A stretch of 64,000 nucleotides of DNA from positions 200,085 to 264,084 of the forward strand of contig JALFCF010000003.1 in the NCBI GenBank assembly GCA_022771205.1. The letters run 5' to 3'. Position 1 is the first letter of the stretch; the number at the start of each line of letters is the position of its first letter. The notes under the pieces were generated by a model. That model did not search any database. It was not told the origin of the DNA and saw only the letters and a list, made by a program, of their open reading frames with translations. This document shows, piece after piece, positions 8,647 to 23,169 of the stretch. The position numbers and the translations under genes are program-made. The stretch is from Mycoplasmatota bacterium (GTDB lineage Bacteria; Bacillota_I; Bacilli_A; RF39; UBA660).

Positions 8647-9033
8647 TTAAATTAATAAATCTAAATAAGTTAATATTCTATTAGTAACGTATAATTTTTC
8701 ATTAGGCATATTTGTATAAAACTTAATTAATTTTATATTAGCTTGATTCAATATTTTTTCAACCTTTAAATCACGAATAATTCTATCTTTTTTTAAGTGT
8801 GAGGAATCATTAATCTCAATAGCCAACAAAAGTTTATGGAAATTCTTATCAAATATACCAAAATCAATATTTCTAAATAATTCATTTACATATTTATGTT
8901 TAATATTTTTTTCTATAACACTGGCTAAGTTAACTTGAGGCTGAACTATAACATCATAATCACGTTCAATATCTTTTAAAATATCATAAAAATACTTCTC
9001 ATAATAACTCATAAATTCCTTTTGCTCATACAT
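8647..9033 (-). CDS. DUF2726 family (PD-(D/E)xK nuclease-like) protein
   Basis: VQPQVNLASVI, IDFGIFD, LAIEINDSSH, RDLKVEKILNQANIKLIKF. Confidence 0.8.
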   Translation of the reverse strand: MYEQKEFMSYYEKYFYDILKDIERDYDVIVQPQVNLASVIEKNIKHKYVNELFRNIDFGIFDKNFHKLLLAIEINDSSHLKKDRIIRDLKVEKILNQANIKLIKFYTNMPNEKLYVTNRILTYLDLLI

Positions 9034-9131
9034 AAATAAAAAACCCCTTTAAAAATTGAAGGACATATCTTACAATAAAATTATAAATTATAAAGAGTAA
9101 AAAGAAAAGTAAAATAAAAAGCATTTTAAGA

Positions 9132-9159
9132 AGTTAACATAATATCAATTATAGGAAGT
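9132..9159 (-). other. dif: chromosomal dif site (XerC/XerD recombination site at the replication terminus)
   Basis: Minus strand reads ACTTCCTATAA-TTGATA-TTATGTTAACT; the Firmicute dif consensus is ACTTCCTA(G/T)AA-TATATA-TTATGTAAACT. It lies at the +/- gene-orientation switch. Confidence 0.92.
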
Positions 9160-9487
9160 TGAATAATAATAAAACAAATTAAAAATATTTAGAAATTTCT
9201 ACTAAATATTTCTTATACAATTTAATAAATTAATTTCCCAAGTGTTCTGCACTTATTTTTTTATAAAAAATCTGTAAAATGAAATTTAAAAATTTATACA
9301 ATATATAAATTTATTTTTAGTTTAATTTAATTAATTATATTTTATTAATTATCATATCCATATACAACCATATTATATAAATAACTATATAATAGATATA
9401 CATGAATGATGTTATAATATTATGGGTAACATATACATGTATAATAATAGGTAGTCACTACCCCTACTATTTTAGTATTAAAAAAAT

Positions 9488-9626
9488 AGGGTGTTCTAAT
9501 TTGATTTGAATTCAAAAAAGATGGGTAATTGTTCGCCTCAATTCATTTGAGAGCATTCTAAATTAAATCGAAATATTAAAAGATGGATAATTATACGTCT
9601 CGATTTATTTAAGAACATTTTAAATT
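9488..9626. repeat. degenerate tandem repeat, 62-bp period, about 2.3 units
   Basis: 9520-9564 vs 9582-9626 match at 36/45 positions, with 8 of 9 mismatches being transitions; weaker match 9488-9519 vs 9550-9581. Confidence 0.75.
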
Positions 9627-13003: not shown

Positions 13004-13129
13004 AGTACCACCTAATAATAAGTATAAGCTAAAGTGCAAAAAAAGACAACTAAGGGCATTTGAAAAACATCATAATTTATTATATAATAATTAAGCAATT
13101 ATTAAATCTTTAATAAAGTTGGTGATAAT

Positions 13130-14350
13130 ATGAATAAACCTTTAGCACAAAAACTGGCTCCAACAACATTATCTGAAGTAATAGGCCAAAAGCATCTTCT
13201 AGGTGAAGGTAAAATATTAACAAATCTAGTAAAAAATAAGAAATTATTTTCTATGATATTATATGGAAAACCAGGAATAGGAAAAACATCAATTGCAAAC
13301 GCTATTGCTAATGACTTAGGAGAACGATATCGTTTTTTAAATGCCACAGTAAATACAAAAAAAGATTTAGATATTGTAATAGAAGAAGCAAAGATGTATG
13401 ATGGCATGATTTTAATTATGGATGAAATACATAGGCTAAATAAAGATAAACAAGATATCTTATTACCACAATTAGAAAGTGGATTAATTACTTTAATTGG
13501 TATGACAACTTCAAATCCATATCATGCTATTAATCCTGCAATACGTAGTAGATGCCAACTATTTGAATTAAAAGAATTAGAAATAAATGATATTAAAGAA
13601 GGCCTTAAAAAAGCCATAAAACACCCTGATTTAAAAGGAATAGAAATTGATGATAAAAGTATCGAACTTATTGCAAAACTCTCTGGAAACGACTTAAGAT
13701 ACGCTTACAATCTATTAGAAGTAGCATACTACTCTACCGATGATAAAAAAATAACAGAAGAAAAAATAAGAAAAATAAATAATAAACCTGTATTCTTTTC
13801 AGATAAAAACGGCGAAGGGCATTACGATGTATTAAGTGGTTTACAAAAATCAATTCGTGGAAGTGACGTAAACGCTGCCCTACACTATTTAGCCAGACTA
13901 GTAGTAGAAGGAGACTTAGATTCAATTTATAGAAGATTATCAGTTATTGCCTATGAAGATATAGGATTAGCAAACCCAGCTATAGGGCCAAGACTAGATG
14001 CCGCTATTAATGCTGCAGAAAGAACTGGATTACCAGAAGCAAGAATTCCATTAGGAACTATTGTCGCAGAAATGGCACTATCACCAAAAAGTAACACTGC
14101 TCATATCGCTTTTGATGAGGCTATTGCTGATATAGAAAAAGGAAATGTAGGAACGATCCCAAAACATATAAAAACCAATTCACCTGATTACAAATATCCC
14201 CATGATTATAAAGGAGCCTACGTAGTCCAACAATACCTACCAGATAAATTAAAAAATAAAAAATATTATCACCCAAAAGATATTGGATATGAAAAAAACA
14301 TAAAAGAAATTTATGAACGTTTAGAAAAAATAAAAAACCAAGGAAAATAA
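13130..14350 (+). CDS. rarA: replication-associated recombination protein A
   Basis: GQKHL, YGKPGIGKTS, DEIHR, TTSNP, SGLQKSIRGSD, EDIGLANP, YKYPHDY. Confidence 0.96.
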   Translation: MNKPLAQKLAPTTLSEVIGQKHLLGEGKILTNLVKNKKLFSMILYGKPGIGKTSIANAIANDLGERYRFLNATVNTKKDLDIVIEEAKMYDGMILIMDEIHRLNKDKQDILLPQLESGLITLIGMTTSNPYHAINPAIRSRCQLFELKELEINDIKEGLKKAIKHPDLKGIEIDDKSIELIAKLSGNDLRYAYNLLEVAYYSTDDKKITEEKIRKINNKPVFFSDKNGEGHYDVLSGLQKSIRGSDVNAALHYLARLVVEGDLDSIYRRLSVIAYEDIGLANPAIGPRLDAAINAAERTGLPEARIPLGTIVAEMALSPKSNTAHIAFDEAIADIEKGNVGTIPKHIKTNSPDYKYPHDYKGAYVVQQYLPDKLKNKKYYHPKDIGYEKNIKEIYERLEKIKNQGK

Positions 14351-14370
14351 TCCTTGTTTTTTTTATACAA

Positions 14371-14847
14371 TTATTTAGCTTGCAATAATGCAAAAAGACT
14401 TGTAACAATAGATATAGCTAAATACAACATAATATTGATAAAAAATAATGGTATAGAAAAATCAAGATCACGAAAGAAACAAAAATAAGTAGCCAAAAAA
14501 ATAAAAGATCTAATAATAATAGTAAATATACATATCACAACAAATTTATTTAAAAAATTCTTCTTATTAGACTCTCTCAATAACAAAAATTCCAAAGAAT
14601 GATCTTTATCATTCGTAAAAAATGTATAAGTAATATATACATGACAAGATATTTGAAATAACATCCACAATATCTTAACACCATCAAAATAAGGAGGAAT
14701 ACCAACTAACTTTGTAAAAGAAGAAATATCCATAGGTAACATTACCATATATAGAAAAATCATAAAATATAAAAATAGGTAAACAATAAACAGTAAGAAA
14801 TATTGTTTTTTTATCGCTTCAAATAAACTAAAAAAATTATACTTCAC
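14371..14847 (-). CDS. membrane protein, about 4 TM (ABC permease-like)
   Basis: Hydrophobic ORF overlapping the 3' end of the ABC ATPase gene. Confidence 0.7.
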   Translation of the reverse strand: MKYNFFSLFEAIKKQYFLLFIVYLFLYFMIFLYMVMLPMDISSFTKLVGIPPYFDGVKILWMLFQISCHVYITYTFFTNDKDHSLEFLLLRESNKKNFLNKFVVICIFTIIIRSFIFLATYFCFFRDLDFSIPLFFINIMLYLAISIVTSLFALLQAK

Positions 14848-15475
14848 CTTTTCTTACTTCTCCTGCATCAAAATAATAAATAAAATCTGACAGATTATCT
14901 AAATCTTCTTTTATATGAGTAGATATAATGATAAGTTTCCCTTTTTTCTTTTCTTCTTTTAAAATCTTACTTATTTTTGTAACACTATTAGCTTCTATCC
15001 CATTAAATGGTTCATCCAAAATAATTATATCTGGATCTTCCATTAATACTTGAGCAATTCCTAATTTTTGTTTCATTCCTAATGAATATTCAGAATACTT
15101 TTTATCTTTTTCTTCGTATAAATTAACATTTTTTAATGCTTCTTCTATTTCTGCTTTACCAATTTTATTTTGAATCTTAGCTAACAACTCTAAATTCTCA
15201 TAACCAGTTAATTCTGGAAAGAAGTTTGGCTTTTCAATTAAAGCTCTCATATTTAACAAATGCAAATCATCTTTATCATACTTTTTATCATCAAATAAAA
15301 CTTCTCCACTACTAGGCTTATAAAGACCACATAAGATTTTTAAAAAGATACTTTTACCAGCGCCATTTCTACCACTTAATCCATAGATATGACCACTTTC
15401 AAAAGAAGCATCAACATCTCTTAAAACTAAATTATTTCTAAACTTTTTACTAATATTTTTAACTTCTATTTTCAT
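14837..15475 (-). CDS. ABC transporter ATP-binding protein
   Basis: GRNGAGKS Walker A, YSLGMKQKL signature, IIILDEP Walker B, STH switch. Confidence 0.95.
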   Translation of the reverse strand: MKIEVKNISKKFRNNLVLRDVDASFESGHIYGLSGRNGAGKSIFLKILCGLYKPSSGEVLFDDKKYDKDDLHLLNMRALIEKPNFFPELTGYENLELLAKIQNKIGKAEIEEALKNVNLYEEKDKKYSEYSLGMKQKLGIAQVLMEDPDIIILDEPFNGIEANSVTKISKILKEEKKKGKLIIISTHIKEDLDNLSDFIYYFDAGEVRKGEV

Positions 15476-15483
15476 AATTCCTC

Positions 15484-16383
15484 CTAATTATTAGCTTCAC
15501 ATGATATTACAAATCTCTCTTTGTTTCGGTAAGCTAAATAAACTCCTAAAAAAGATAAAAGAAGAAAACTAATATTTACAATAAATAATGCTGGAATACC
15601 AAATAAATCATTAAATCCAAAAATATCCATAATATTAAATATCATTCCAAGTTCTGTATGAAATACTCTCTGTAAAATAAGTACTCTAACAACAGTCTCC
15701 AAAAATATTTCAATTGAAAAAAATACAATATAAGATAAGATAATACAAGGAATAAATTTCTTTTGAAATCTCGCTACAATTAAAGAAATATTTACATAAA
15801 TTGTAGATACAATTAAAACATTTAATAAATAAAGGAAAATAAACAATACCGGATGATAAATTAACTTTGTACTCCACCTCATACCATAAGCAATAGAATA
15901 TTCAGGAGTAAGTGTATACGTAAATAATAAAGGAAGCATCAATATAATAGCGAGTACTGGTAATATCCAAAGATATTTATAAGCAGTAAATAACATTTTT
16001 TTAATAAAACTTTTATAACTTTCCCGTAAATTAGTATTCAAAATATATTTATTTCTTAACATTCTGCAAATTTGAATCATTGATGGAATAATAACAATTA
16101 AAAATAGAAAATAACCAAACGATTGTACATGCCATATTAATACTTCTGAAAATTCAGAATAAAAATCTGGTTCAATCACTTCATTCGTAAGTATTTCATG
16201 ACAAAATTTCTTTTCTCCTTCATCTGTAATTGTTTTTGTCTTACATCGTTCTATATAATTATTTCTAGTTTCAGCTATTCCCTGATTATTCTTTATAACC
16301 TGATAGTCACCATAAAGAAAAATAGCACCAAATACCACCAAAATTACTATTACAACAACATTACGTCTCAAAAATTTTTTCAT
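15484..16383 (-). CDS. ABC-2-type permease-like membrane protein
   Basis: N-terminal TM, external loop, about 5-6 further TMs; GAGGTG RBS before MKKFLRR. Confidence 0.75.
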   Translation of the reverse strand: MKKFLRRNVVVIVILVVFGAIFLYGDYQVIKNNQGIAETRNNYIERCKTKTITDEGEKKFCHEILTNEVIEPDFYSEFSEVLIWHVQSFGYFLFLIVIIPSMIQICRMLRNKYILNTNLRESYKSFIKKMLFTAYKYLWILPVLAIILMLPLLFTYTLTPEYSIAYGMRWSTKLIYHPVLFIFLYLLNVLIVSTIYVNISLIVARFQKKFIPCIILSYIVFFSIEIFLETVVRVLILQRVFHTELGMIFNIMDIFGFNDLFGIPALFIVNISFLLLSFLGVYLAYRNKERFVISCEANN

Positions 16384-16426
16384 AAAACACCTCATATTTA
16401 AGTAAAGAGTTTATAGAACAATTATT

Positions 16427-16831
16427 TTAATAAGTCCAAGTAAAAGATACTGTAGAAGGCAAAGCTGTAGGACCTACTCGTTTTATCTTCACATAATATC
16501 TTCCAGGAGGCATATCTGTATCCCCAGGAAAAGAACCTGTCTGGTTCATTTTCAAACGCAATCTACCTTCAGTTTTCCCCGTTTCCTCATTATGTAGTTC
16601 AAAATCAAACTCACAATTAGGACAAGGATCTGTCATTGGAGTATACGCATTTCTAATTTTAATTTTTTGTCCATCCCAACTTGTTTTATTAATAGAATTT
16701 GATCTTGTCCATGATAAAGGACTAAGATTATAATAAGTCATATCAATAGTTGCCGCATCTACAGAACAAGGAATAACTATAATTCCTAATGCAATCGCTA
16801 GAGTTAATCCAAACTTTTTAAAACTTTTCAT
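16427..16831 (-). CDS. secreted protein (Sec signal peptide), first gene of the ABC cassette
   Basis: MKSFKK + hydrophobic core + VDA|A cleavage site; about 108-aa beta-rich mature part with CPNC. Confidence 0.8.
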   Translation of the reverse strand: MKSFKKFGLTLAIALGIIVIPCSVDAATIDMTYYNLSPLSWTRSNSINKTSWDGQKIKIRNAYTPMTDPCPNCEFDFELHNEETGKTEGRLRLKMNQTGSFPGDTDMPPGRYYVKIKRVGPTALPSTVSFTWTY

Positions 16832-16900
16832 AAAAATTCATCCACATACTAATTTAAATCAAAATTTCAAACTATAAACTCTTTACAATTTCATTGTACT

Positions 16901-16963
16901 ATTATAAAAACTAAATTCTTAAAAATTCCGCGAATGATACTCCTAGCTACCACGAACAGTATA
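16901..16963 (-). promoter_or_regulatory. putative activator-dependent promoter with two direct repeats
   Basis: TATAAT at 16901-16906 with no good -35; plus-strand CCGCGAATGATA (16928) and CCACGAACAGTA (16950), 22-bp period. Confidence 0.45.
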
Positions 16964-17020: not shown

Positions 17021-17053
17021 AGTTCATTTACAAAACACTTTGTTAAATGAACT
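17021..17053 (-). terminator. terminator after holA
   Basis: AGTTCATTTA...TAAATGAACT inverted repeat, T-tract on the minus strand. Confidence 0.7.
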
Positions 17054-17060
17054 AAAACAT

Positions 17061-17999
17061 TTATGAATTTTCTAAAATAAATAATTCTATTAAAAAATTA
17101 CCATCAACATCACTTGATTTAATTTTTAAATCCATATCCGCAAGTTTTCTTAATATTGTTCTAAGTTCTTGCTCACTATAATATCTAGTTAACTCTCTAG
17201 TCTTTTGAATTCTATATGGTTTTTCTCCCAAGATATCCGCAATTTCTTGATTTAAATTAGTTCTTTTTTCAAGTATTTTAACTTGATACATAATCAAAAA
17301 TTGACTAGCAAGTAATCCAATTAAAGGTATCGCATCAATAGAATACTCTTCTAACTCATGATACTTATCTAAAGCACCTTTTTTATCTTTAGAAGCAAGA
17401 ACCCTAACAAAATCAAATGTTAAATCTCTAGAATCTCCTAATTTTTTAATAACTAACTCATCTACATCTTGAAGAGAAATCTTTTTAGTATCTATTCGAT
17501 ATAATTTTAATTTCTCACATTCCTGATGAATTCTGCCAATATCTTCTAAAGTATAACTAACAAGAGCTCTGACAACACCATTTTCTAATGTATATCCTTG
17601 TAATTCTTGCTTTGTAAAATCTACTGCATTAGTAGTAAGACTAATATACTCTAAATTCTTTTTTAATTCCTTAGTTATCTTCTTAGTATTATTTAATTTT
17701 CTAGCAGTTACAATAACTAAAATAGTATCTAGAGGATCTTTAAAATATTTCAAAAAATGTTCAATATCTTTTTCATTACCTTCAACAGTTAGAGATTCAA
17801 TATTAGAAATAATAATAACTTTTTTTTCTGAAAACAATCCATAAGTATCCAAATCTTCTAAAGCATTTGATAGAGGAACTTCCTCCATATCATAAGAATG
17901 AACAGGAGAATCTTTAAACAAACATTTATCTATTAATTCCTCTATCTTCATAGAAACTAGATAATTATCTTCACTTTCTAATAAATAATTATTCTTCAT
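17061..17999 (-). CDS. holA: DNA polymerase III delta subunit
   Basis: YLL.SEDNYL, DLDTYGLFSEKKVII, ECEKLKLY, TFDFVR, LADMDLKIKS. Confidence 0.88.
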   Translation of the reverse strand: MKNNYLLESEDNYLVSMKIEELIDKCLFKDSPVHSYDMEEVPLSNALEDLDTYGLFSEKKVIIISNIESLTVEGNEKDIEHFLKYFKDPLDTILVIVTARKLNNTKKITKELKKNLEYISLTTNAVDFTKQELQGYTLENGVVRALVSYTLEDIGRIHQECEKLKLYRIDTKKISLQDVDELVIKKLGDSRDLTFDFVRVLASKDKKGALDKYHELEEYSIDAIPLIGLLASQFLIMYQVKILEKRTNLNQEIADILGEKPYRIQKTRELTRYYSEQELRTILRKLADMDLKIKSSDVDGNFLIELFILENS

Positions 18000-21819: not shown

Positions 21820-21995
21820 ATAAAAGACCTAACTAGGAGTGCATAATACACGGTACCATCCTAGTTTGGTCTTAATTTAGATAACGGCAAGGCCGATAAA
21901 ACTCATAAAGTAGCTTCTTAAAGAATAAGCAAACTATTTTCACCATCCATAGTCTCTCTAAACACTTTAATTCTTTAATACTTATCTTTAATCCT
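21820..21995 (-). ncRNA. T-box riboswitch, Ala specifier (GCU)
   Basis: Minus strand shows stem I with AGAGA and GGTGA boxes, TTAAAGAAT/ATTCTTTAA helix, specifier loop GAA-GCT-A (21912-21914), T-box bulge TGGTACC (21852-21858), and terminator AAGACC..CTAGGA/TCCTAG..GGTCTT with T-tract; alaS is downstream. Confidence 0.92.
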
Positions 21996-22002
21996 CGTTT
22001 TA

Positions 22003-23169
22003 TTATTCTTTTATTTCATCCCCTGTAACTTTACCAATAACATCGATTTTTTCATTAATAAATGTTATAACAATTTTTAATGCTGCAATAACAGGAGTTG
22101 CAACAATCATACCTATAATACCAAAGAAATGTTGGAAAATCAATAGTCCTAACATAATTGTTACTGGATGTAACTTCATCGTATGACTCATAATCAAAGG
22201 TTGATAAAAATTATTTTCTAAAAGTTGAACTACTATAATAGAAATAACACAACAAATTCCAACAATTGGATCAGTCATAAATCCTACTAGTACTATTGGA
22301 ACAGCCCCTATATAAGGACCAAAATAAGGAATAACATCAGTTAATGCACAAAAGAAAGCAAAAACTAAAGGAGCTTGTAAACCGCTGATAGTAAGTCCAA
22401 TGGCTTGAGTAATAAACACCAATGTCATAACAAGCAAAATACCCTGTACATAGCTACGTAAAGATTCATTCAAGCGAACACTAAGTTCACTAGCACCTTT
22501 CTTCCAACTTCTAGGAAGTAGAGAAATAATTCCACGATTAATTTTATCAAAATCAAATAACATATAAAAACCAATCATAAGTCCTAAGAAGAAAGAAACA
22601 CCTCCACTAACAATTCCAGATACAAAACTAATAGCCATATCAGGAATGCGAGTAGAAAGATTTACTCCAAACGTTTCTACAGAATGATATAAATGGTCCT
22701 TTACACTAGAAAGATCATAATCAAAAGTACGTGACAAATCTGCAATAATATTATTAAAGAAATCTTTAGAATCATTAACTAAATCCGGAATGTTTCCAAT
22801 AAAATCTTTAACTTGACTTCCCATAGCTGGAAAAAGTAAAGCAACTATTAAAAATAACACTACAATAAACAATAAATAAACCAAAATACAAGCTAAAATT
22901 CTTGGTACTTTCTTTCCTTGTAAAATTTTAACTAAAGGATCTAAAAGCCAAGCAATAATTAATCCAATAAAAATAGGCGAAATAACTGCTAAAAACTCTC
23001 CAACAAATTGTAGCACTTGCCACTCTTTAATAAGATATGTAACAAGTAACACTAAAGCAATAATGGCCATTACATAACCAATTTGCACTAATTTTTTACC
23101 AGTAGATAAAATATCATTTAAACTACTAATATCCACTTCTTTATCTTTTATTTTTCGAAACAGCACCAA
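22003..23169 (-). CDS. AI-2E family transporter
   Basis: IAWLLDPLV, YMLFDFDKI, IPYFGPYIG, QLLENNFYQP, LHPVTI; probable TTG start after GGGAG. Confidence 0.88.
   Translation of the reverse strand: MVLFRKIKDKEVDISSLNDILSTGKKLVQIGYVMAIIALVLLVTYLIKEWQVLQFVGEFLAVISPIFIGLIIAWLLDPLVKILQGKKVPRILACILVYLLFIVVLFLIVALLFPAMGSQVKDFIGNIPDLVNDSKDFFNNIIADLSRTFDYDLSSVKDHLYHSVETFGVNLSTRIPDMAISFVSGIVSGGVSFFLGLMIGFYMLFDFDKINRGIISLLPRSWKKGASELSVRLNESLRSYVQGILLVMTLVFITQAIGLTISGLQAPLVFAFFCALTDVIPYFGPYIGAVPIVLVGFMTDPIVGICCVISIIVVQLLENNFYQPLIMSHTMKLHPVTIMLGLLIFQHFFGIIGMIVATPVIAALKIVITFINEKIDVIGKVTGDEIKE

Follow-up and report, generated by a model that had tools for sequence, protein, structure and literature searches.

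A secreted jelly-roll protein encoded with a LanFEG-like ABC transporter: a candidate Sec-dependent bacteriocin cassette in uncultured gut Bacilli

The window analyzed in this study is a stretch of 64,000 nucleotides (nt) from a Mycoplasmatota bacterium (contig JALFCF010000003.1, positions 200,085 to 264,084). Between holA and the convergent rarA it contains four tightly packed open reading frames (ORFs), all on the minus strand (14371-16831) and in the order A, B, C, D. They encode a small secreted protein (A), a membrane protein (B), an ATP-binding cassette (ABC) ATPase (C), and a second, short membrane protein (D). An earlier note on this DNA had described such a cassette, and its description of the locus is right in every detail that can be checked, including the absence of any modifying enzyme or peptidase within the cassette (only A, B, C, and D are encoded). 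The reading that we rank first, with a chance somewhat short of even, is that the cassette may specify a new Sec-dependent, unmodified protein bacteriocin together with a cognate LanFEG-like ABC-2 immunity complex. It is ranked first because A is always accompanied by the transporter, the transporter outlives A, cassettes are replaced and cassettes are exchanged horizontally, which together form the population signature of a toxin/immunity locus. In addition, A carries no anchor and would therefore be a diffusible product, which fits a toxin better than a cell-bound protector. The cassette would then be a case of a secreted bacteriocin with ABC immunity, made of three protein families (A, B, and D) that are undescribed in the libraries searched.

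Gene A (16427-16831, minus strand) encodes a precursor of 134 amino acids (aa) with a predicted Sec signal, a jelly-roll domain, and a CPNC motif. The signal peptide can be read directly from the sequence and comprises residues 1-26 (16754-16831; MKSFKKFGLTLAIALGIIVIPCSVDA, followed by ATID), with a basic n-region (MKSFKK), a hydrophobic core, and a V-D-A cleavage site (between VDA and A). If cleaved after V-D-A, mature A is ~108 aa long. CPNC is found at residues 70-73 (16613-16624). The AlphaFold model, built from 18 homologues with a pLDDT score of 83.8, is all-beta after the signal helix, and the mature part is modeled as an eight-stranded jelly-roll beta-sandwich. The earlier view of A as a Sec-type, unmodified, beta-rich protein of ~108 aa with CPNC thus holds. 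Foldseek, which had been suggested as a check on A, agrees on the beta fold but points to no known structural family. Among PDB and viral structures it returned generic jelly-rolls alone, with template modeling (TM) scores ≤0.6 and 6-17% identity. These are a lambda tail-tip protein, PirA, nucleoplasmin, Ena pilins, GOLD domains, TNF-like lectins, and also the C-terminal domain of the Clostridium perfringens enterotoxin. The matches are non-specific and we draw no function from them.

By sequence, A appears to fit no named family, as the earlier note had supposed. A, B, D, and D1 (an extra protein of five-gene cassettes, see below) have no match in Pfam, NCBIfam, PADLOC, or PHROGs, neither singly nor as whole alignments. 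A from the window yields nothing in Pfam at E ≤ 1, and the A family profile yields nothing among all PDB sequences at E ≤ 10. A word-indexed search with A retrieved close relatives only. The upstream ORF of locus L013, a 40%-identical homologue of A, was used as a seed to widen the family, and 130 A clusters (clustered at 50% identity) were then obtained by a full profile search among 1.84 billion representatives. Nearly all members are single-domain proteins of 130-150 aa with a signal peptide, a signal-like N-terminus being present in 122 of the 129 proteins compared. The family shares only about 20% identity overall. The CxxC motif is conserved in 100% of the 129 proteins, K49, T64, and R118 in 95-99%, and W132 in 94%, and most mature proteins contain exactly two cysteines. 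A lipobox-like motif occurs in five of the 129 members, and an LPxTG motif or a transmembrane segment in the mature part in none. The window protein has no lipobox either: it contains I-P-C, the Cys of which is not conserved. Since A lacks a lipid, sortase, or membrane anchor, A is most likely a released, soluble protein. The isoelectric points of the mature proteins range from 5 to 9.7 (median 8.3).

The source names of the A-family clusters are uninformative, with one member labeled ‘lipoprotein’, and a metagenome scan with a narrower A alignment recovered six loci only. A scan of viral contigs revealed no relative of A, making a phage origin unlikely. A role as c-type cytochrome or in a Ccm pathway was considered and rejected: there is no CxxCH motif (the second Cys is followed by E, Q, K, I, or V, with no conserved His), and the CcmA model scores 116.1 bits on C, below its cut-off of 131.6. 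A reading of the locus as a defence system was rejected as well.

Gene B (15484-16383, minus strand) encodes a protein of 299 aa with a predicted ABC-2/type V permease fold. The ORF is listed as 15484-16395, but the ATG at 16383 is preferred, given the ribosome-binding site GAGGTG and the MKKF/MKRF starts of the homologues. Hydropathy indicates six transmembrane helices, with a helical extracellular insert of ~55 aa between the first and the second. This insert contains two Cys that are invariant in the alignment, C47 (16243-16245) and C61 (16201-16203). The top Foldseek matches of the AlphaFold model (pLDDT 82.8) are all type V membrane domains (NosY, PmtD, ABCG, ABCA). The scores are weak (probability ~1, E 0.07-1, TM score 0.45-0.55), with only 10-12% identity to NosDFY(L)/PmtCD, and a profile of B found nothing meaningful among PDB sequences. 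B is thus modeled as an ABC-2/type V exporter membrane domain, an assignment that has weak E-values behind it.

Gene C (14837-15475, minus strand) encodes an ABC ATPase of 212 aa (Pfam ABC_tran, 4.4e-31) without a C-terminal extension. Its motifs are intact, i.e., Walker A (GRNGAGKS, 15350-15373), the signature (YSLGMKQK), and Walker B (IIILDEP). Of 190 NCBIfam models, the best for C is TIGR03740, the lantibiotic-protection ATPase, with 186.5 bits (below its cut-off of 309.75), while TIGR03608 reaches 106.9 bits against a cut-off of 254.85. The nearest solved ATPases are ABCA1/3/4/7, NosF, and PmtC (1e-25 to 1e-34). The Q-loop position, located by motif spacing and not by alignment with NisF, is occupied by Glu81 (15233-15235) instead of Gln, in an E-loop, ALIEKP, 40 residues past the Walker A Lys. 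IEKP with Glu81 is invariant in 26 distinct C homologues. The E-loop is a conserved hallmark of LanF proteins (bioRxiv 10.1101/2025.10.09.681468), and C is predicted to be a LanF-like ATPase of this kind. Characteristics of type V ABC exporters are thus found in both proteins: the insert between the first two of six transmembrane helices in B, and an ATPase of the ABCA/ABCG/DrrA group.

Gene D (14371-14847, minus strand) begins with GTG and shares 11 nt with the end of C. It encodes a membrane protein of 158 aa with four to five hydrophobic segments and a conserved loop (E.D.S.E..LLRES.KK) after the second one. The short ABC ATPase and the two membrane proteins of the earlier note are therefore all present, and a D homologue is found in every cassette. 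Many cassettes are five-gene variants, in which C is followed by an additional six-transmembrane protein, D1 (244-255 aa), and then by a longer form of D (163-212 aa). The profiles of B, D1, and D show no significant similarity when compared with one another, with alignment limited to a motif resembling RESYK..F.KK after the second transmembrane segment. This short basic motif may represent a coupling helix. None of B, D, and D1 is matched by the LanE/LanG models. In locus L029, D1 is shortened to 168 aa (9022-9528) by a deletion of ~46 nt, compared with 244 aa in L030 (9022-9756), in an assembly that retains an intact A. As D1 is also absent from the four-gene form in the window, it may be dispensable. 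The transporter half is exporter- or immunity-like, given the LanF-like E-loop of C and the type V fold of B related to PmtD. The suggestion that the ABC complex serves immunity is supported as far as the type of transporter is concerned, but the complex resembles LanFEG more than the lactococcin 972 transporter that had been taken as the model.

The surroundings of the A cassettes were read in the window and in loci L001-8, L013-17, and L022-39, covering more than 12 different genomic contexts. Every A-family gene with readable surroundings is followed by B-C-(D1)-D, in wider contexts that have no relation to each other: holA/rarA, rpoC, a two-component system with a C39-like peptidase, tRNA genes with a metallo-beta-lactamase-fold gene, ftsEX with sporulation genes (FtsEX in L029-31), and a Tad pilus operon. 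In the latter case, a five-gene cassette lies directly upstream of the Flp/Tad operon (Flp, TadE, CpaE-like ATPase, T2SSE, T2SSF; L032 9475-13405 and L033 3682-7615). A two-component system adjoins the cassette in only one of the contexts (L025), where an OmpR-type response regulator and a kinase are encoded just upstream. The converse arrangement, B-C-D without A, was found in L009/L010 (a different context, in L009 with a MraY/WecA-like glycosyltransferase and FtsW), L011, and L018-L021. Locus L011 retains the holA synteny, has no A, and has C split in two. The survey of neighborhoods that the earlier note had proposed thus gives the pattern to be expected of a bacteriocin/immunity locus, i.e., A always with B-C-D, B-C-D alone, A deleted within a species, and cassettes replaced. 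Cassettes with variable first genes, which this survey was meant to find, were not seen, as the first gene is always of the same family or absent.

The remains of A can be followed in several relatives. The promoter survives in L019, L020, and L021, together with a stub in the first two and a decayed 3′ remnant of A in L021. The A gene of L016 is interrupted by an in-frame stop, and in two protein clusters A is found as split fragments on single contigs. Loci L005 (A present) and L020 (A absent) differ by a deletion of ~380 nt that takes out A, while the roughly 6 kb to either side of it are 98.1-98.3% identical; this is a presence/absence polymorphism of A within one species. The losses of A are secondary, and B, C, and D are mostly intact afterwards. 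The ATPase gene is split into ORFs of 88 and 119 aa in an A-less cassette of a close relative of the window (AlaS 95% identical; L011 6923-7569 and L012 995-1641). Its occurrence in two independent assemblies suggests real decay of the transporter after the loss of A. We should note that all relatives are metagenome assemblies and that assembly errors may account for lone frameshifts or stops (L016, L011, L029).

Whole cassettes are also replaced between near-identical flanks. In L026 and L027, from the same species, the flanking proteins are 97-99% identical, whereas A shares only 37%, B 34%, C 65%, and D 32%; the number of genes differs as well, with four in one cassette and five in the other. 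The DNA homology ends exactly at the cassette borders, beside tRNA-Arg and tRNA-Thr. Similarly, AlaS and HolA of the window are 95% and 90% identical to those of L011, yet B is only 51% and D 35% identical. Between the window and L015, the synonymous divergence (dS) of the four cassette genes is 0.16-0.21, and that of alaS, holA, and rarA is three to five times higher (0.52-1.02), pointing to a recent horizontal exchange of the cassette alone, after the genomes had diverged. The ratios of non-synonymous to synonymous divergence (dN/dS) are 0.17-0.20 for A, 0.15-0.18 for B, about 0.09-0.15 for C, and 0.24-0.28 for D, which indicates purifying selection on all four genes. These values (0.09-0.28), together with orthologues of all four genes in many assemblies, argue for real genes rather than chance ORFs. 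The divergence of A and that of B go up and down in parallel between cassettes.

The bacteriocin reading would work as follows. A is presumably exported via Sec and leaves the cell as a soluble jelly-roll protein of ~108 aa, in which the CxxC probably forms a disulfide. Mature A would be an unmodified protein bacteriocin that attacks the envelope of related bacteria without the matching transporter. The producer would be shielded by a complex of two C subunits with B and D, which may remove the agent on the outer side of the membrane or block it there, as LanFEG does, with D as the constant small membrane partner of B and C and with the extracellular insert of B probably stapled by its cysteines. 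Protection would be specific to the cassette type. Strains with B-C-D from which A has been deleted would be immune non-producers, and the exchange of whole cassettes would bring new toxin/immunity specificities. A broader proposal, held with slightly more reserve, is that A founds a widespread, unrecognized family of Sec-dependent unmodified protein bacteriocins of ~108 aa, with a jelly-roll fold and an invariant CxxC, each tied to its cognate LanFEG-like complex and exchanged as a cassette among uncultured gut Bacilli.

Several observations weigh against a bacteriocin. The host is uncultured, and both toxicity and immunity rest on inference. A resembles no known bacteriocin or toxin, a cationic character of the mature protein is not consistent across the family, and no quorum-sensing regulator is attached to the module. 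The cassette occupies a conserved place in the chromosome, and the rate at which A evolves does not exceed that of HolA. Since cassettes of B-C-D alone are common, the transporter may serve an independent function. Among the B homologues, the largest clade is ~49% identical to B of the window, and the only member of this clade read for its context (L009/L010) has no A. Finally, all evolutionary patterns cited above are also compatible with an accessory role for A.

The most serious of the other explanations, although an unlikely one in our view, takes up this last point. B-C-D could be an orphan LanFEG/CprABC-type resistance transporter directed against foreign antimicrobial peptides, and A an extracellular helper that serves as binder or decoy in the role of LanI or NukH. 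The LanF-like E-loop of C suits this explanation, as do the many genomes with B-C-D and no A and the OmpR-type regulator and kinase upstream in L025, which are found with many peptide-resistance modules. The order of a helper gene followed by the transporter is likewise that of nisI-nisFEG and spaI-FEG (PMC5786555). However, LanI is lipid-anchored, whereas A has no anchor in 124 of the 129 family members, and a free binder would be poor protection for the cell that makes it. A is never found apart from B-C-D, whereas LanI-type proteins can act alone. Moreover, the conserved polar residues and the invariant CxxC in a family of ~20% identity suggest one conserved partner and not diverse foreign peptides. 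An identification of A as a lipoprotein homologue of LanI was rejected, with no lipobox in the window protein and one in only five of the 129 family members.

Somewhat less probable still is that B-C-D, as a housekeeping or conditionally useful complex, exports or flips a component of the envelope that is hydrophobic or linked to lipid, with A as an acceptor or docking partner on the insert of B, comparable to NosD/NosL on NosFY, an ABC-2 complex that drives a process outside the cytoplasm. NosY and other type V exporters are indeed the best structural matches of B, and both extracellular parts contain invariant cysteines (C47 and C61 in B, the CxxC in A). Some contexts relate to the envelope (the MraY/WecA-like glycosyltransferase and FtsW in L009, FtsEX in L029-31), and the parallel divergence of A and B would suit docking partners. 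On the other hand, it is unusual for a housekeeping pathway to show deep allelic replacement inside a species, losses of A on several occasions, a broken C (L011), and recent horizontal exchange, and the neighboring genes differ in almost every context.

We give little credit to the idea that A is a secreted signal, a kin-recognition protein, or an adhesin or lectin for host or neighbor surfaces, with B-C-D as its sensor or receptor or as merely co-regulated genes. A small, diffusible protein that looks stable would suit this idea, as would the cassette polymorphism in the case of a recognition system, and the fold matches of A include jelly-roll lectins, PirA, and the enterotoxin domain, but those fold matches are non-specific and the conserved module contains neither a kinase nor a transcription factor. 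Moreover, ABC-2 complexes with LanF-like ATPases are not known to act as protein receptors. That A is the substrate-binding protein of an ABC importer, the possibility that the earlier note had itself raised against its proposal, has a negligible probability: A is extracellular and encoded beside an ABC system, but it is an all-beta jelly-roll of 108 aa without lipobox instead of a two-lobed alpha/beta protein of at least 250 aa, the fold of B is of the exporter kind (type V), and C falls among exporter ATPases such as ABCA, NosF, PmtC, and LanF.

The cassette with A is predicted to be a single transcription unit with its own promoter. The upstream neighbor, holA (17061-17999, minus strand; DNA_pol3_delta match), is followed by an intrinsic terminator hairpin with a U-run (17021-17053, minus strand; -11.8 kcal/mol, z = -3.6 versus shuffles) that is also kept in L011 and L018-L021 and sets the cassette apart from the alaS-holA operon. 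A consensus scan identified a candidate sigma-70 promoter at 16893-16922 on the minus strand (TTAAGA, 18 nt, TACAAT; 9 of 12 matches), which probably drives the cassette. It lies within a conserved block upstream of A (TTTTATAATAGTACAATG) that is retained in the relatives, including those in which A has been deleted. The 43-nt gap between A and B contains no terminator, and a bidirectional terminator-like hairpin found by a terminator scan (14339-14356, both strands) is common to the cassette and to the convergent rarA/mgsA (13130-14350; MgsA_C match). Own promoter, holA terminator, terminator-free gap, and closing hairpin together argue for a separate operon. An Rfam scan of the operon and its leader revealed no riboswitch or leader RNA, and the window (about 30% G+C) contains a single copy of the module. 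The genes around the cassette include holA, alaS, rarA, a xerC/D-like gene, and a deoB-like gene, with no lanthipeptide biosynthesis genes nearby. The nearest genomes are metagenome-assembled genomes (MAGs) of uncultured gut ‘Bacilli’, ‘Tenericutes’, or ‘Mycoplasmatota’, among them the human-gut MAG UMGS1700.

The neighborhood has some further features. The alaS gene (about 897-906 aa; stop 17989-17991) overlaps holA by 11 nt (17989-17999), and this overlap, kept in all relatives, indicates translational coupling of the alanyl-tRNA synthetase gene with the gene for the DNA polymerase III delta subunit. A T-box leader (21832-22004, minus strand; 93.7 bits against a gathering score of 93) precedes the minus-strand genes leading into alaS-holA and presumably controls this operon by tRNA charging. 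In relatives, an Amidoligase_2 gene is located between rarA and the xerC/D-like recombinase gene (L001/L002 11722-12669). The corresponding interval of the window (13040-13129) is only about 90 nt long, so the gene is absent from this genome. An Amidoligase_2 gene also adjoins the cassette in the unrelated context of L023. In one assembly of a sister species, an IS3-family element (HTH_Tnp_1 and rve transposase ORFs) is inserted between D and rarA (L003 6076-7316); it is not present in the window or in the other loci.

If A is antibacterial, it would represent a structurally new class of unmodified protein bacteriocins, and its transporter a new branch of LanFEG-like immunity transporters, both from gut lineages (Bacilli/‘Tenericutes’-like) that have never been brought into culture and about whose ecology hardly anything is known. 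If A indeed founds a bacteriocin family, producers, immune non-producers, and sensitive types would occur within single species, i.e., a kin-discrimination system built from unnamed protein families. The module is compact (four or five genes) and needs Sec only and no modification enzymes, making it tractable in surrogate hosts, and the natural A-positive, A-deleted, and cassette-swapped strains offer ready-made controls. Even if A is no toxin, three unnamed protein families are tied to one function, and the locus is an example of allelic cassette replacement at a conserved chromosomal site.

Among known systems, the lactococcin 972-type loci (lcn972-orf2-orf3; scbABC) share the overall plan: a Sec-secreted, unmodified beta-sandwich protein is encoded by the first gene of a short operon, and natural strains exist in which this gene is deleted and the transporter genes are retained. 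In these loci, too, a membrane protein and an ABC ATPase thought to confer immunity are encoded downstream (PMC4055356; PMC11796350). In the lcn972 cluster, two genes with a putative role in ABC immunity come after the structural gene (PMC4055356). Three genes make up the operon of streptococcin B, a lactococcin 972-like locus whose product depends on Sec; in one quarter of pneumococcal strains, the bacteriocin gene has been lost and the genes downstream of it have been kept (PMC11796350), a picture that the loss of A with retention of its transporter appears to repeat. Membership in this type, to which the earlier note had leaned, is not supported. The Lactococcin_972 Pfam model matches none of 72 A family members, and the family has no sequence match in the PDB, a set that should include Lcn972. 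Lcn972 itself has 66 aa and no cysteine, unlike mature A with its ~108 aa, eight-stranded jelly-roll, and invariant CxxC. Bacteriocins of the Lcn972 type are further characterized by lipid II binding and by blocking septum formation, and the lcn972 cluster has reportedly been difficult to clone. Likewise, C is below the cut-off of TIGR03608, and its partners are an ABC-2-like protein of 299 aa and a protein of 158 aa instead of a large protein with seven transmembrane segments. The cassette thus seems to work like a lactococcin 972 locus and yet to fall outside that family.

Among solved structures, B comes nearest in fold to NosDFY(L) and PmtCD, and the ATPases nearest to C include NosF and PmtC. 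NosFY cooperates with a protein located outside the cytoplasm, and PmtCD exports membrane-damaging peptides and protects the producer. In contrast to these systems, the cassette has no beta-helix NosD and no copper-chaperone motif, and A is predicted to be exported by Sec and is no phenol-soluble modulin-like peptide. LanFEG (with its LanI/LanH helpers) and CprABC share more features with the cassette: a short ATPase with an E-loop, which is the best family-level match of C, membrane subunits that differ from each other and have an ABC-2/type V fold akin to that of PmtCD, and an extracellular beta-rich protein encoded just upstream. There are differences as well. C scores under the curated TIGR03740 cut-off, and B and D have no LanE/LanG match. 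LanE and LanG are two different ABC-2 subunits with six transmembrane segments each. B has six as well, as does D1 of the five-gene variants, and the short D has four to five hydrophobic segments. B also carries the helical extracellular insert with two invariant Cys. No lanthipeptide cluster surrounds the cassette, A is not a lipoprotein, and the dedicated two-component system of Cpr-type operons has a counterpart in L025 only. On balance, the sequence comparisons place the cassette closer to LanFEG than to the Lcn972 transporter.

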